Assembly: GCA_018648095.1 (NCBI GenBank)
Contig: JABGRV010000006.1
Span: 16,559 to 80,558, forward strand
Direction of reading: 5' to 3'
Length of the DNA: 64,000 nt
Source: an archaeon
GTDB lineage: Archaea; Nanobdellota; Nanobdellia; Pacearchaeales; GW2011-AR1
Each line of letters opens with the position of its first letter. Positions within the stretch are counted from its first letter, which is position 1. The notes below the pieces were generated by a model. The model was not told the DNA's origin, made no database searches, and worked only from the letters and a program-made list of their open reading frames with translations. Shown piece by piece: positions 21,128 through 62,326 of this stretch. The position numbers and the translations under genes were made by a program.

Positions 21128-21339
21128 GAGCTATACGATTATTTAAAGTTTGTTGTAATAATTTCACTATCTTAGAACCTGCCAGAATCAGAATATCTCA
21201 TAGTATAACCGAATCGCCCACTAACTGGGGAACTATCATACTTATTTTGGTTCCATTCATACGGTGATCCCGAAGGCCTTTCAAACACATATCCTTTGGA
21301 TTCACCATCTCCACATCCACATGCCATATTATCTCAATG

Positions 21340-21620
21340 AATATTAGTCTTTTATGACTTTCGGTCAAATCTACGAAATAAAAAACACAAAGTATGTCCT
21401 ACAACATATATGATACAATATCTATATTGCAATATACTATATTGCACCACATACATTGGGACAAATAAAAAACCAAACTTTGCCCTAAGGGCACCAAATC
21501 ATCCGAATTTTAAGACCGAATTTTAAGAAATAAAAAATGCAAATAAAAAACCAAACCCAAAATCTACGAAATAAAAAACACATAATCAAATAAAAAACAC
21601 AAATCCAAAGGCGAGGAGCC
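21340..21620. repeat. A-rich degenerate short direct repeats (aaataaaaaacac variants; aatctacgaaataaaaaacaca occurs twice) in a 560-bp non-coding junction
   Basis: Read directly from the sequence. They lie exactly at the AT-rich to GC-rich composition boundary. Confidence 0.6.
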
Positions 21621-21691
21621 CAAACAGTCAGTAAACTGAAAGTTGGGCCCCTGCCTTGGATACTACGTCTTGACCACCCAGTTAATTGGAC

Positions 21692-22153
21692 TTACTTGGG
21701 CGGATACAGAATCATAAGAATAACCAGGAAGAAGCAGACGGATATCACAACAAGCGAAGGAACGCTCGGAATGTAATATCCTTCGAGTCTTTCAATCTCC
21801 TGGAAACTGAAGACGCCACGCCCTTTTTCTCCACAATCCACATGGTACCTGTAACCTTTTTCTGCGCCACCAAAATCCCAATCCCGAATAACGCCTATCT
21901 TCCCTTCGGCAGCGGTATCCCGTTGGACGATCTTGATTTGATCATTGATGTGATACGCCGGGCCCCACCACCAGCAGAGGAAGTAAACTCCTGCAAGGAG
22001 GAGAATCAGGACCGCCCACCCCCGGGGAGATATCTCATTCAACTTTTTGGCAACCGCCCTTAGGGGACGGTAAACGACCAGCAAGGCAATGAACCCCCCA
22101 ATCGTGGCCAACACCTGCCAATGATCACCGGCTATTTTCAAAAGTTCATCCAT
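21692..22153 (-). CDS. family A small 3-TM membrane protein, paralog 1 of 4 in tandem
   Basis: Shares the WQVLATL... N-terminal TM, WWGPAYHIND, GKIGVIRDW and GP.IP..P motifs with the next three ORFs. Confidence 0.55.
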   Translation of the reverse strand: MDELLKIAGDHWQVLATIGGFIALLVVYRPLRAVAKKLNEISPRGWAVLILLLAGVYFLCWWWGPAYHINDQIKIVQRDTAAEGKIGVIRDWDFGGAEKGYRYHVDCGEKGRGVFSFQEIERLEGYYIPSVPSLVVISVCFFLVILMILYPPK

Positions 22154-22251
22154 ACGTCACTTCCTTTCATTCTGTCAATTCTCTTTCTTCTAGCTCATGC
22201 ACACACTGCACGAGTAATGCAAGTAAAAAATACTCCCCCTGTCAAGGGCAA

Positions 22252-22737
22252 TTAATCCAACTTATCCCGGACGATCACCAGGAAGCTTCCCAGAATAAAT
22301 ATGATGAAGGATGGAATTCCGGGGATATAGGGGCCACCCAAACTCCTTATCTCCGCGAACAGAAACTTATGCTTTGCCCCCCCACACTCCACAAAGTAGG
22401 AGTAGTGGGCCATTTCAAGTTTCCAATCTCTGACCACTCCAATTTTCCCGTTGAGCTCGCTTTGCAGTCGCGTAATCTCAACTTCATCATTGGCGCCATA
22501 GACTGGGCCCAACCACCAGCTGAAACAATAAACTATCACTGCAAGGAAAACTATCCCGAAGATCGTCCACATCAGCCACTTTCCGGCTACGCGCCCCCGA
22601 TCAATAGCTTTTCTTACCAAACGATAGCCCACAACCAGAACAGCGCAGGTAGCCAACGTGGCCAGCACTTGCCAATTGTCACAGGCCATTTTCCAAAGAT
22701 CATTCATAACTTCATTTCCTTTCATTTCGATTATCAC
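22252..22737 (-). CDS. family A small membrane protein, paralog 2 (likely start at MNDLWKM, ~22707)
   Basis: Paralogous to 21692..22153. The reported N-terminal extension is probably translated leader. Confidence 0.55.
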   Translation of the reverse strand: MIIEMKGNEVMNDLWKMACDNWQVLATLATCAVLVVGYRLVRKAIDRGRVAGKWLMWTIFGIVFLAVIVYCFSWWLGPVYGANDEVEITRLQSELNGKIGVVRDWKLEMAHYSYFVECGGAKHKFLFAEIRSLGGPYIPGIPSFIIFILGSFLVIVRDKLD

Positions 22738-22832
22738 AACCTCCCAAGGGAGAGCTAGTCATCCGGCCCACTGCCAAACAATCTAGCTCCCCCTTACAAT
22801 CGACCTCTTAATCGAGAGAACGACAACTACGC

Positions 22833-23327
22833 CTAGTCACTCGCGCCTTCTTTCAGCTTCAGGGAATCCATATTCGCGGCGAGAGCTATCAGGCTTCCGA
22901 TTATCATCAGGATAAGCGGAAAAACACTCGGGATATAGCAGGGGCCTTCAAACCTTTTGAGTTCCTGGAAGTGGAATTTTCCCAGTTCTTTCGCCCCATA
23001 ATCCACATGATAGATGAATCCCCCTGGACGAGGACTTTCCCAATCACGGATTATTCCGACCTTTCCTTCCTCGGGGGTATCTCGTTGGACGATCGTGACC
23101 TTTTCGTTGATACCATACACCGGTCCAAGGCCCCATGCGAGGAAGTAAATCACTGCCGAGACAATTACCATCCATACGAGGGTCTTCAACACCCAACCCG
23201 TAGTGAGATTCACATACCTGGAAGCAACCTTCTTTCCCAAGCGATAAATCACGAAGAGGGAGGCGAAGACAGCCAATGTGGCAAATACCTGCCAGTTGTC
23301 GCTCACCATGTTAACAAACTCTTTCAT
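22833..23327 (-). CDS. family A small membrane protein, paralog 3
   Basis: The MKEF..NWQVFATL N-terminus and conserved family motifs. Confidence 0.55.
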   Translation of the reverse strand: MKEFVNMVSDNWQVFATLAVFASLFVIYRLGKKVASRYVNLTTGWVLKTLVWMVIVSAVIYFLAWGLGPVYGINEKVTIVQRDTPEEGKVGIIRDWESPRPGGFIYHVDYGAKELGKFHFQELKRFEGPCYIPSVFPLILMIIGSLIALAANMDSLKLKEGASD

Positions 23328-23428
23328 ATCTCGTTCCTTTCGTTCAATTCATCAAAACCCCCAAAAGGGAGAGCTAGTCATCAAGCCCAATGCCCAACAA
23401 TCTAGCCCTCCCAAGGGTAACGCCATCG

Positions 23429-60647: not shown

Positions 60648-60654
60648 GACACCT

Positions 60655-60700
60655 TTCCTTTCTTCACTCCACGATTGGAGCGAGGTTTGTTGTTTATCAA
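60655..60700 (-). promoter_or_regulatory. family H conserved leader, copy e
   Basis: ttcactccacgattggagcgaggtttgttgtttatcaa, immediately upstream of the 60647 start. Confidence 0.55.
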
Positions 60701-60712
60701 CTAATTAACGAG

Positions 60713-60785
60713 TGAGAGCGGCAGGATTCGAACCTACGACCTCTTGGATGTAAGCCAAGCGCTCTACCAGTTGAGCTACGCTCCA
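60713..60785 (-). tRNA. tRNA-Val: tRNA-Val (anticodon UAC)
   Basis: Hand-folded cloverleaf. D-arm GCUC/AACUGGUA/GAGC, anticodon stem CUUGG/CCAAG with loop CUUACAU, T-arm GUAGG-UUCGAAU-CCUGC, 5-nt variable loop. CCA is not encoded. The acceptor stem pairs except an apparent U1-C72 mismatch. Confidence 0.7.
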
Positions 60786-60811
60786 AACCAGCCCAGGAGA
60801 GCTGATGATCG

Positions 60812-61189
60812 TCAGTCCGTCTTTTCCTCCGCAATTTCAGCTTCAGCAATCAGCTGAATTTTGACATAATGTGCGGTCTCTTTCTCCAACGCTTTGGTTG
60901 TCAGTGCACTGACGACCTGACTGACCACTTCAACATCGGTGTAATTCAGGCCTTCAGTTGCAAAAGCCTCTGCGCCCCGGATCATCATGGCCAACCGGTC
61001 AGTTCCCGAACCGCCTGCTTCATCAATCAGCAGAGCTGGGAGGTTGGAGGCTTCCATCTCGAACTCCAACGCCTTGGTTATCAGTGCGCCGATAACGGGA
61101 CCGATCAATCCAGGATTAGAGAATTTCAGATTCTCAGTTGCATAAATCTCTGCACCTCGAATCACATTAATTAGTTCAGCTCGATTCAT
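60812..61189 (-). CDS. small protein made of two tandem ~45-aa repeats (IRGAE..ATE.L.....V...V.ALTTKALE)
   Basis: 125 aa with an internal duplication. The leader tttcaccCttaaAgggcattaaGtttcaa is shared with the next gene. Confidence 0.4.
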   Translation of the reverse strand: MNRAELINVIRGAEIYATENLKFSNPGLIGPVIGALITKALEFEMEASNLPALLIDEAGGSGTDRLAMMIRGAEAFATEGLNYTDVEVVSQVVSALTTKALEKETAHYVKIQLIAEAEIAEEKTD

Positions 61190-61254
61190 CTCAACCTTCT
61201 TTCACCCTTAAAGGGCATTAAGTTTCAACAATCGCAGTGAGGCCAGAAAATCCC

Positions 61255-61815
61255 CTATTTCCTGACTCCGACATCTACTGAGACGTAGATTACTGCATCC
61301 TCTCCAACGGGATTCTCGGCTGTGGCCTTTCTGAGGCAAGCACGAATTTTCCCGATAATCCCCTCAATCAGGTACGTCCGATCATGACCTCGCCGATCCT
61401 TGTCCGTGATTTCCACAGCCAAGTAGGGCTTTTTCTTCTCATCGGGCAAGAACATATCCCGAATGAAGGAATAATGCTCAGTGTGGTTTTCATCGATCCA
61501 CTTGATGGCGATCGGACCCAGAAGCTCGTTGAGATCTTTGAGGAGTTGAGAAGCATAATCGGCCTCTTCTTCCCACTGAACCTCTATGCTGCCTTGGACC
61601 TCTTTCTTCAGAAGTCCGATGATTTCCACCGCATGAGGTCGGAACATCCCCCTTCCAGTCAACATGTCCAGCATATACTCATAATTCGTCAAATTCATCT
61701 CGTCACCTACCTTTCTCACCCATTTCGGGCAGTTATTCGTCCCGTTGTGCTCAGTGCACAGTTTGTGGTTCATCAACCTACGACGCAGGATATCCCTCCG
61801 CATAATGCTGCCCAC
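61255..61815 (-). CDS. hypothetical soluble protein
   Basis: 186-aa ORF preceded by tttcacccAttaaGggcattaaAtttcaa. Confidence 0.4.
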   Translation of the reverse strand: MGSIMRRDILRRRLMNHKLCTEHNGTNNCPKWVRKVGDEMNLTNYEYMLDMLTGRGMFRPHAVEIIGLLKKEVQGSIEVQWEEEADYASQLLKDLNELLGPIAIKWIDENHTEHYSFIRDMFLPDEKKKPYLAVEITDKDRRGHDRTYLIEGIIGKIRACLRKATAENPVGEDAVIYVSVDVGVRK

Positions 61816-62326
61816 ATCGCTAAAAGAAATACGACAGCAAATATCGCTCCAGTTAGATCCATTTCACATCCTTTCACCCATTAAGGGCATTAAATTTCAA
61901 AATCCATCACGTATTCCACGATTTCAGCCTTTTCAGACTACAATATATACTTCTCATTCATTTCTGAATGCTTTTTTCCACTTTCTTCGCTTTCGCTCAG
62001 AAAATTTTCATCTTTCCCAAAACTCTTTTAAGAATTTTAGAAAATTTTCATCTTTTGACAAAAAGTTTTCACTTTTAATCAAGTTTCCTCCAAAATGAGG
62101 TTAGATATTCCGCTATAAGGGGTTAATCTTTAAGCAGATATTGGGTATTCCACGTCGGAACACACATTCGATTAGAGTTGTCATAGTAAAACCTATAGAA
62201 TCATCCTTTGGATTTACCTTATTCCGCGAAGTTTTTATTGCCTCGCAAGGTATTCCCTTCCACATAGTTTCTGGAAAGTTGATATTTCAGCAGAAAGGCC
62301 GAAATAAGTAGTCACTGGGTTAATGT

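Follow-up and report, generated by a model that had tools for sequence, protein, structure and literature searches.

A 64,000-nucleotide stretch of archaeal DNA (GenBank assembly GCA_018648095.1, contig JABGRV010000006.1, positions 16,559 to 80,558; hereafter the window) contains a GC-rich block of about 40 kb, with roughly 50 genes on one strand, between an operon encoding a HerA-type ATPase and the gene ppdK. We favor, with moderate confidence, the interpretation that this block is a genuine chromosomal genomic island: an accessory envelope island that has been fed horizontally, expanded by duplication, and located at a conserved hotspot. It is the largest version so far of the variable locus between the HerA-type ATPase operon and ppdK in a DPANN clade. 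A first-pass annotation, made from the letters of the window, had offered three explanations for the block: a horizontally acquired island or integrated element, a symbiont-derived insertion, or a chimeric assembly join. The first of these is supported as far as the island is concerned, given the composition, the placement between genes that are neighbors in relatives, and an extra non-host tRNA, but we found no integration or mobility machinery that would make it a recognizable integrated element.

The block (21700–61900) has a GC content of 49.6%, compared with 38.4% in the left flank (1–21127) and 37.1% in the right flank. The shift noticed in the first pass is therefore real, although it amounts to 11–12 points overall and not to the more than 15 points estimated by eye; at third codon positions the jump is larger, with 30.8% in the flanks and 55.9% in the block (25 points). 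In 1-kb windows, GC runs at 35–45% up to 21 kb, 46–56% over 22–61 kb and 36–37% past 62 kb, with a single low-GC window within the block (54–55 kb, 43%). The tetranucleotide signature is likewise not uniform across the window and switches at both edges: flank windows correlate at 0.96–0.97 with the flank signature, and block windows at 0.83–0.94 with the block signature. Using 200-bp GC windows, we placed the edges at about 21,600 and 61,905, sharp to within about 100 bp and 0.4–0.5 kb inside the coordinates given in the first pass, which are the ends of the neighboring host genes. Some 50 minus-strand open reading frames (ORFs) of at least 85 aa tile the block with a coding density of 90%, and its plus-strand ORFs are shadows within them. 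The gene callers of JGI, ENA and NCBI also place essentially all block genes on the minus strand, in agreement with the original description. The single-copy island genes for a major vault protein (MVP) homolog, a GluR0-type channel and g55 are as GC-rich as the rest. The block thus has the distinct composition and codon use, with sharp borders, of a horizontally acquired island.

The flanks encode S6e, aIF5B and class-I GluRS, as first reported, together with CTP synthase, PPDK and other ordinary genes, and 13 of the 17 flank proteins scanned have a Pfam match. A few flank genes of host composition have none (488 aa, 223 aa and 334/307 aa; window 12339–14537 and 17436–18440). The 488-aa gene has recognizable homologs in 25 related DPANN loci and the 334-aa ORF has one match at 20% identity; these genes are ordinary DPANN dark matter, distinct from the island.

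Abrupt composition changes at both ends, and binned metagenome-assembled genome (MAG) contigs that end near the edges, are what one would expect if an archaeal contig had been joined to the DNA of another organism during assembly. We reject this explanation, which we consider hardly credible, because the junctions are reproduced across assemblers and relatives carry similar islands at the same place. Exact-protein look-up of the MVP gene, ppdK and the right-flank 112-aa gene retrieved junction-spanning contigs from different samples in JGI (3300004111, 3300004109, 3300025659, 3300003496 and 3300072015), ENA (ERZ23491424, ERZ27237598/606/607, ERZ4201006 and ERZ508549, with MEGAHIT k141 and SPAdes NODE contigs), Logan (SRR3719505) and NCBI (GCA_018646385.1). 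Both junctions are base-for-base the same in at least eight assemblies from different assemblers, and the contigs, which span the left, the right or both junctions, are 99.94–100% identical to the window over the full overlap. The whole island with both flanks lies within a 177-kb contig and within a 385-kb contig. In addition, the insert coincides precisely with an intergenic hotspot and is oriented like its neighbors, and related species carry similar but smaller islands there. A Borg-like or other extrachromosomal element is also ruled out, as both ends are continuous with the housekeeping chromosome on the two long contigs. All sampled contigs represent one nearly clonal population and are therefore silent on variation within the species.

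Composition-based binning drops islands such as this one, and the NCBI MAG of this organism stops at both island edges. Contigs JABGUY010000006.1 and JABGUY010000051.1 of GCA_018646385.1 reach only about 0.3 kb into the island on the left and about 3.3 kb on the right, and so lack most of it. A fragment of the island MVP gene (P0001, HN588_16100) is labeled ‘Candidatus Bathyarchaeota archaeon’ by NCBI, which is probably a mislabel because the relatives of the window PPDK are all DPANN.

The host, a marine archaeon that is ultra-small and probably symbiotic, belongs to the DPANN group and is of the Woese-/Pacearchaeota type. A PPDK scan over one genome per GTDB species returned 80 loci, all in DPANN MAGs, with up to 78% identity; they are labeled Woesearchaeota, Pacearchaeota or Nanoarchaeota, and several come from Saanich Inlet. 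In 10 related species, the gene for a HerA/DUF87-type ATPase precedes ppdK in the same orientation, 0.8–8 kb away (L numbers denote loci; L046 0.77 kb, L042 1.5 kb, L038 2.0 kb, L044 3.0 kb, L040 3.5 kb, L039 3.6 kb, L029 4.4 kb, L106 4.8 kb, L035 6.8 kb and L026 8.2 kb), while L032 has more than 10 kb of DNA with 48–55% GC ahead of ppdK. At the level of the clade, the anchors are 0.77 kb apart in L046 and 1.5–8 kb apart in the others; within the species all contigs carry the identical island. The gene order L35Ae–L10e–methyltransferase–small ORFs–ATPase / island / ppdK is kept in the relatives and the island alone differs, so the block interrupts a conserved synteny. Its counterparts differ in each species and are always co-directional with the anchors, and their ORFs are small, often with signal peptides, lipobox-like signals or transmembrane (TM) segments.

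Compositional contrast is a frequent property of these related islands as well. Island GC exceeds surrounding GC in eight of the 10 relatives with both measured, for example in L042 (54.6% versus 35.6%), L032 (49.9% versus 39.8%) and L026 (45.4% versus 35.3%). The L032 island signature correlates better with the island of the window (r = 0.68) than with its own flank (r = 0.52). The motif GAAAGG is enriched on the sense strand in eight of 10 related islands measured, and in seven of these eight its density is 1.1–3.5 per kb compared with 0–0.3 per kb elsewhere. The exception is L026, with its small flank sample; L042 and L106 have none of the motif, and L038 shows no sense bias. The parts that recur at the hotspot are tRNAs of non-host type, a PEP-CTERM protein, a membrane protein of the FN3 kind, and small proteins that have a signal peptide or TM segments and are preceded by a GAAAGG-type Shine-Dalgarno (SD) sequence.

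Five genes for small soluble proteins and the gene for the 645-aa ATPase form a conserved operon that always borders the hotspot (window 62327–63923; L016 6541–10339). Its composition is host-like, and the C-terminal segment of the ATPase appears winged-helix-like when read by eye. We considered this operon as an island-linked DNA-import machine and dropped the idea, as the partner proteins have no TM segments and the composition is that of the host.

The tRNA-Val that had been noted inside the right boundary was confirmed about 1.1 kb from the right edge, as a second, divergent copy. The host's own tRNA-Val(UAC) gene is located about 9.8 kb further right, beyond the end of the window (L016 2098–2168), before an NTP-transferase gene, in an arrangement conserved in relatives, and alignment shows that the two tRNAs are greatly divergent. 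Islands of related species also carry such tRNAs: two Val-UAC in L044, Val-AAC and Lys-UUU in L040 (6754–6823 and 7599–7668), Ala-AGC in L106 (9810–9883), a ‘UCA’ tRNA in L032 (497–571) and an odd one in L035 (3849–3923). Island tRNAs are closer to one another (median identity 0.67–0.75) than to native tRNAs (0.57–0.65). The tRNA of the window's island has matches at 77–81% identity in 458 phage records and in every E. coli genome, while the host tRNA-Val matches none of them. We nevertheless assigned it no domain of origin, and gave up reading it as a bacterial-type tRNA, because native DPANN tRNA-Phe and tRNA-Thr have the same canonical D arm. Some of the anticodons in the relatives' islands are unusual for archaea (A34 in Val-AAC and Ala-AGC, and the UCA called ‘SeC’) and one tRNA has an 8-nt loop; some may be pseudo-tRNAs or suppressor-like. 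The search of both junctions for repeats of the tRNA-Val 3′ end, as proposed in the first pass, found no tRNA-derived att site, with local alignments no better than shuffles.

Only four of the roughly 50 island proteins have a Pfam-type annotation (the MVP homolog, the GluR0-type channel, a PEP-CTERM tail and a GspF N-domain), based on two Pfam scan matches at or above the curated cut-off, one precomputed Pfam assignment and one NCBIfam PEP-CTERM match. The MVP homolog g44 is 42% identical over 97% of its length to MVP-labeled prokaryotic proteins, and it matches vault chains in PDB at 3e-12 by sequence and 1e-20 by Foldseek. Its shoulder (SPFH-like) domain scores 87 bits with PF11978 against a cut-off of 25. 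The MVP repeats fall below the cut-off (Vault_3, 23.9 bits versus 28.8), with a Foldseek match to murine R1–R7 of about 1e-6 from a low-confidence model, and the cap helix is represented by a predicted continuous helix at 696–843, with phmmer aligning residues 519–854 to rat MVP 454–816. The AlphaFold2 model has a pLDDT of 57, too low to be used beyond architecture. The nearest non-self homologs, 42% identical, include one on an archaeal contig among housekeeping genes and one on a bacterial contig; the archaeal one (L025 10001–12586) lies between aIF5A/TtuA-type genes. Full-length homologs with 39% identity are also present in the huge-phage genomes LR756500, LR756501 and LR756503 (462–735 kb), at 20001–22112 of L148 (LR756501.1) and 20001–22166 of L149 (LR756500.1) in the extracted loci. 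We rejected a vault operon, as none of the genes beside MVP in the bacterial contig, the archaeal contig or two huge-phage genomes has a counterpart in the island.

In g51, a periplasmic-binding-protein fold with ligand-binding S1/S2 lobes is interrupted by a two-TM K-channel pore, as in GluR0-type prokaryotic ionotropic glutamate receptors: SBP_bac_3 covers residues 47–363 and is split by Ion_trans_2 at 168–234, with TM segments at 142 and 213. The top PDB hit for g51 is the bacterial iGluR homologue 2pyy (1e-35). The PEP-CTERM tail reported in the first pass belongs to g36, passes TIGR02595 (18.8 bits versus 16), and consists of the PEP motif, a TM helix and a basic tail. Homologs of g36 in the L032 and L035 islands pass the PF07589 PEP-CTERM model (26.1 and 25.2 bits versus 20.7), and no exosortase or archaeosortase was found in the window or the fetched flanks. 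The GspF-like N-domain of g5 is present as claimed but limited to the N-terminal 48 residues (TIGR02120, residues 5–52, 19.6 bits versus a cut-off of 424); g5 is not a GspF, because it lacks the full-length polytopic two-domain platform. The LVSGC lipobox can be read directly in g31, and lipobox-like signal peptides akin to it occur in the islands of L032, L035 and L040. A weak zinc ribbon is found in g25.

These features bear on whether the DNA was taken directly from the partner cell of the episymbiont or from a co-resident bacterium of the candidate phyla radiation (CPR). PEP-CTERM, lipobox and GspF-N features are commonest in bacteria, one MVP homolog is labeled Magasanikbacteria, and the g41/42 family described below is common in CPR-like bacterial contigs. 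Ordinary cellular DNA, however, would have brought many housekeeping genes, where here only the four proteins above are annotated, and no donor with more than 50% identity for MVP or g56–59 was found in very large sets of metagenome proteins, the same Saanich Inlet samples among them. We regard such a direct capture, which is the symbiont-derived insertion suggested in the first pass, as very improbable; it has no direct support, with no close donor in 5.8 billion proteins.

In the island as a whole, about 12,300 aa of protein, Pfam matches are almost absent. A TM or signal segment is predicted in 34 of the 50 proteins. Eight families of tandem paralogs, with 25–78% identity, account for many of the genes (g56–59, g15–19, g41/42, g39/40, g37/38, g29/30, g21/27 and g6/7). 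Their dN/dS values of 0.27–0.68 indicate that the paralog ORFs are real coding genes under purifying selection. A profile of g56–59 searched against the 5.8 billion proteins returned only self matches. The g41/42 profile, in contrast, found 1378 representative clusters of a widespread unnamed family that no Pfam model covers, with the motifs RWC, FFAKEPPxW and DQCxFRRR, the C-terminal motif ALPKxRRTxxLRFxDLKxxVCRPF, and four invariant cysteines. A member of this family is the first island gene in L106 and another is on the DPANN contig L122. Others are found on the CPR-like bacterial contig L108 beside GrpE-DnaK-DnaJ, FtsQ, a Mur ligase and FemAB, on CPR-like L114 and L115 beside SecA and FtsH (neighbors read by eye from translations), and on six IMG/VR contigs of 62–406 kb. 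Members were located across loci L106–L147. By sequence comparison, the closest relatives of the cargo genes MVP, GluR0 and g41/42 are in other lineages.

The 5′ ends of g41 and g42 share a 192-nt repeat with 99% identity (family D4; 35278–35469 and 36766–36957) that covers the upstream region and the first codons, and this identity indicates ongoing or recent gene conversion between the two genes. Most assemblies break at this repeat. Contig L007 fuses both copies into a single gene, as either a deletion variant or a collapsed repeat. A 90-nt repeat with 74% identity (35194–35283 and 55319–55408) encodes an acidic Pro/Glu-rich stretch in the unrelated g42 and g11. The acidic insertion of g44 (31090–31270), which has no counterpart in MVP relatives, is similar to this stretch, and acidic low-complexity tracts also occur in g10, g41, g42 and g48.

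With gene conversion visible in the island, its high GC might have arisen in place, for instance by GC-biased conversion among tandem paralogs in an ancient and native locus with no recent import. In line with this, the locus is occupied in every related species examined, the PEP-CTERM and g41/42 families recur in it, its SD sites suit the host, and some related islands have host-like GC. A 25-point jump at third codon positions with edges sharp to within about 100 bp is hard to explain by conversion between paralogs only, and single-copy genes are equally GC-rich. The island tRNA is also unrelated to the host tRNA-Val, and MVP, GluR0 and g41/42 have relatives in bacteria, other archaea and phage-like contigs. 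Overall, we judge a purely native origin improbable.

Both boundaries are AT-rich non-coding stretches of about 500 bp with short direct repeats, as initially described. The left one contains a 21-nt repeat (ATCTACGAAATAAAAAACACA) and a 13-nt repeat (CCGAATTTTAAGA), each in two copies, and begins after the last island gene with a hairpin whose RNA fold reaches -45.5 kcal/mol (z = -4.4; none of 200 shuffled sequences was as stable); with its U-tracts, the stem looks like a terminator. In the right boundary, TATA-like GTATATATT is located about 55 nt ahead of the first hairpin and SD, and is a candidate host-type promoter of the island. The 12-nt repeat ATCCTTTGGATT has only two exact copies in the window, one per boundary, compared with about 0.02–0.1 such matches expected by chance; it is unrelated to the tRNA and absent at the same site in relatives. 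This pair is a weak candidate for an insertion-site duplication, suggestive but possibly due to chance. The sequence ATCCTTTGGATT is also near-palindromic, and an 11-nt inverted copy (21601–21611) forms part of the terminator-like hairpin.

Expression signals differ between the block and the flanks. TATA-like boxes at about -25, which had been noticed at some flank starts, precede nine of 19 flank genes and two of 50 block genes, whereas SD-like motifs (GAAAGGA-type) precede 28 of 50 block genes and one of 19 flank genes. First genes of host operons have a TATA-like box about 25 nt before the ATG and no SD (L016 4740–10000 and flank starts of the window), and are apparently leaderless, while genes internal to host operons carry GGAGGT / GAAAGGAGGT SD sites. 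The SD sites seen at block starts in the first pass are thus present at just over half of them, but they are not a bacterial hallmark because the host uses SD sites within its own operons; the island type corresponds to this operon-internal usage, and we rejected the reading of SD as bacterial. Bacterial sigma-70 promoters are not enriched in the island (20 found versus 16.3 expected). The list of bacterial hallmarks as a whole is a weaker argument than first thought: the motifs exist, but the host has SD sites of its own, native DPANN tRNAs share the D arm, and the closest MVP homolog is located on an archaeal contig. Five 8-bp hairpins upstream of SD sites, with a consensus fold of -10.5 kcal/mol and wobble changes only (no compensatory pairs), may be an RNA processing or translational control element.

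A further possibility is that the island is an integrated mobile element of unrecognized type (a provirus, an integrated plasmid or a fragment of a huge-phage-like element) that targets the intergenic site between the anchors, has its own tRNA, and has genes for replication, integration and structure that diverged too far to be detected. Genes that are nearly all ORFans on one strand, together with a tRNA, are typical of viruses and mobile elements, and archaeal dark-matter islands are often integrated elements (PMC6393860). The odd anticodons of the related islands' tRNAs (Val-AAC, Ala-AGC, Lys-UUU and ‘UCA’), the MVP homologs of huge phages, the g41/42 relatives on IMG/VR contigs, the bracketing ATCCTTTGGATT repeat and the breaks of several assemblies within the island fit the same explanation. 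Against it, Pfam searches of all block ORFs of at least 56 aa and PHROGs searches with 30 proteins covering all families detected no integrase, recombinase, transposase, polymerase, primase, helicase, packaging ATPase, capsid, portal or terminase, and no conjugation or replication genes. PHROGs gave only matches to families of unknown function with E-values of about 0.003–0.009, besides a 35-residue zinc ribbon (1.6e-05) and a borderline Mu Gam-like match. No convincing Walker A / P-loop motif is present in any island protein, and IMG/VR scans with the MVP, g41/42 N-terminal patterns, g56–59 and g17–19, four families of the block, had no match. There is also no tRNA-derived att site and no synteny with the phage MVP loci, and the SD and terminator signals are host-like. 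We infer that the island is not an active provirus, and consider an unrecognized integrated element possible but rather unlikely. A defence island was considered separately and rejected, as PADLOC had no match.

Table 1. Features of the island and its surroundings (window coordinates)
Feature	Position	Strand	Evidence
ppdK, left hotspot anchor	18437..21118	-	PPDK_N 1.9e-101; 72-78% identity in related DPANN genomes
Downstream boundary	21128..21665	-	~25-bp stem then U-tracts directly after last gene; AT-rich spacer to ppdK start
12-nt direct repeat ATCCTTTGGATT, left copy	21291..21302	+	16 of 17 when extended
Island proper, ~40.3 kb, 49.6% GC, ~50 co-directional genes	21600..61905	-	GC and tetranucleotide profiles, ORF tiling, paralog dN/dS
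g56-g59, four tandem paralogs (TM, small beta domain, TM), 38-43% identity	21692..23917	-	Paralog comparison
g51, GluR0-type ligand-gated channel	26823..27926	-	SBP_bac_3 1.6e-28, Ion_trans_2 1.7e-10, Lig_chan-Glu_bd
g44, 918-aa MVP homolog with acidic low-complexity insertion	30606..33362	-	MVP_shoulder 1.2e-24
g42, g41 paralogs: FN3-like N-domain, 3 TM helices, basic coiled coil, Cys-containing C-terminal motif	33879..36851	-	
g36, secreted beta-rich protein with PEP-CTERM sorting tail	40067..41041	-	TIGR02595 18.8 bits vs cut-off 16
g31, small predicted lipoprotein, signal peptide ending LVSGC	42051..42314	-	Read from translation
g15-g19, five related signal-peptide and multi-TM proteins in tandem, shared upstream sequence	48741..53358	-	Repeat families D3, D11, D17
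Five 8-bp hairpins UCRCUCYA-AUUG-UGGAGUGA	57461..60696	-	Repeat families D5, D7; 4-6 nt upstream of SD GAAAGGAA of g5, g6, g7, g8, g10
g5, GspF/PilC N-terminal domain only	59955..60647	-	Precomputed PF28597 T2SSF_N
tRNA-Val(UAC), second divergent copy	60712..60785	-	ARAGORN; Rfam 63.8 bits; ~1.1 kb inside right edge
Upstream (ATPase-proximal) AT-rich boundary	61906..62326	-	Three GAAAATTTTCATCTTT-like 16-mer repeats; sequence read directly
12-nt direct repeat ATCCTTTGGATT, right copy	62203..62214	+	Exact copy
112-aa host gene and C-terminal 418 aa of 645-aa HerA/DUF87-type ATPase, right anchor	62327..63923	-	DUF87 4e-09, Zot 9e-06

In this population the locus has grown to about 50 genes, partly by capture from outside, namely of the MVP homolog, the GluR0 channel and the family shared with CPR bacteria and large virus-like contigs. 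Another part of the growth came from tandem duplication and divergence, which produced eight families of paralogs that are under purifying selection; g41 and g42 have also undergone recent gene conversion. In the interpretation that we favor, and based on the TATA-like element and the hairpin with U-tracts at the far end, transcription would start from a host-type promoter at the ATPase-proximal edge and yield long polycistronic RNAs that end next to ppdK. Internal genes would be translated through SD sites (GAAAGGAGGU) that fit the host's own anti-SD. The products would form an accessory envelope or surface proteome, possibly serving to attach to, or exchange with, a partner cell or to vary the surface against viruses. 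The foreign composition would persist because genes are imported again and again from a GC-richer pool that such islands share, and not through evolution in place.

Several observations weigh against this interpretation. There is no integrase, transposase or tRNA-derived att site to explain how the DNA arrived, and no donor has been identified, with the nearest non-self MVP at 42% identity and g56–59 without relatives. Every sampled contig of the species has an identical island, with no empty site or variant that would show a recent gain. The islands of L029, L038, L039 and L106 are host-like in GC, so the locus itself may be ancient and only its present filling foreign. Finally, the envelope function is deduced from predicted topology alone. 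A more far-reaching proposal, which we offer as speculation and think rather doubtful, is that the ATPase-ppdK islands are an unrecognized family of mobile or exchangeable DPANN cassettes with their own tRNAs. These would draw on a pool shared with CPR bacteria and huge phages, would move with neither an integrase nor a capsid of known type (perhaps in trans or through homologous replacement), and would supply fast-diversifying envelope proteins, including a vault-like shell protein, that decide the partner cell.

A large part of archaeal diversity consists of DPANN archaea, which are thought to live attached to other cells, and to our knowledge almost nothing is known of the genes that mediate this contact. 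A conserved address that each species fills with different proteins, most of them membrane-bound and quick to duplicate, offers a specific site at which to search for them. The presence of MVP and the FN3-membrane family in DPANN archaea, CPR bacteria and huge-phage-like contigs also bears on cross-domain DNA exchange among ultra-small symbionts and viruses. No paper describing this island was found in our literature search.

Among known systems, the closest for a single gene is the MVP family, with its prokaryotic and huge-phage homologs (bioRxiv 10.1101/872010; 10.1101/2023.11.10.566534). The island protein g44 aligns end-to-end with prokaryotic MVPs and matches the vault repeat, shoulder and cap-helix regions; in contrast to other members it has an extra acidic insertion. 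Within the island it is one cargo gene among 50 and not the organizing principle, and its assembly into a cage, in vaults a closed 39-fold half-vault, is hypothetical. At the level of the locus, tRNA-associated integrative islands and proviruses (SSV-type, pTN3-type) share the deviant GC, conserved neighbors and variable cargo, as well as a tRNA close to one end, with most of the island downstream of its 3′ end. They differ from the present case in having an integrase and a direct repeat from the tRNA 3′ end, neither of which we found, and here the tRNA is a divergent extra copy that recurs in the islands of other species instead of the host's own gene.

Archaeal dark-matter islands have been surveyed in 524 genomes (Makarova, Wolf and Koonin; PMC6393860, which cites an earlier survey of 168 genomes). 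They are reported to be enriched in integrated elements and conflict-related genes, and DPANN is described as one of the two groups with the highest dark-matter fraction (PMC6393860). The block resembles them as a long contiguous run of unannotated genes, enriched in small membrane or secreted proteins, in a DPANN genome. At about 50 genes it is as long as, or longer than, the longest island of that survey (49 genes) and is among the longest dark-matter gene runs reported for any archaeon. It differs in its sharp compositional contrast, its own tRNA and its conserved address across species, and it has no signature gene that would assign it to the ‘grey’ zone.

The block can also be compared with marine hypervariable envelope islands, with which it shares a fixed address, content that is replaced between species, mostly surface or envelope products and an atypical composition. 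Such islands in Prochlorococcus, SAR11 (its hypervariable region) and Haloquadratum typically have a lower GC content than the genome and are rich in recognizable glycosyltransferases. The DPANN island, in contrast, is GC-richer than its host, consists almost entirely of ORFans that are largely tandem paralogs, and is invariant in the one population sampled.

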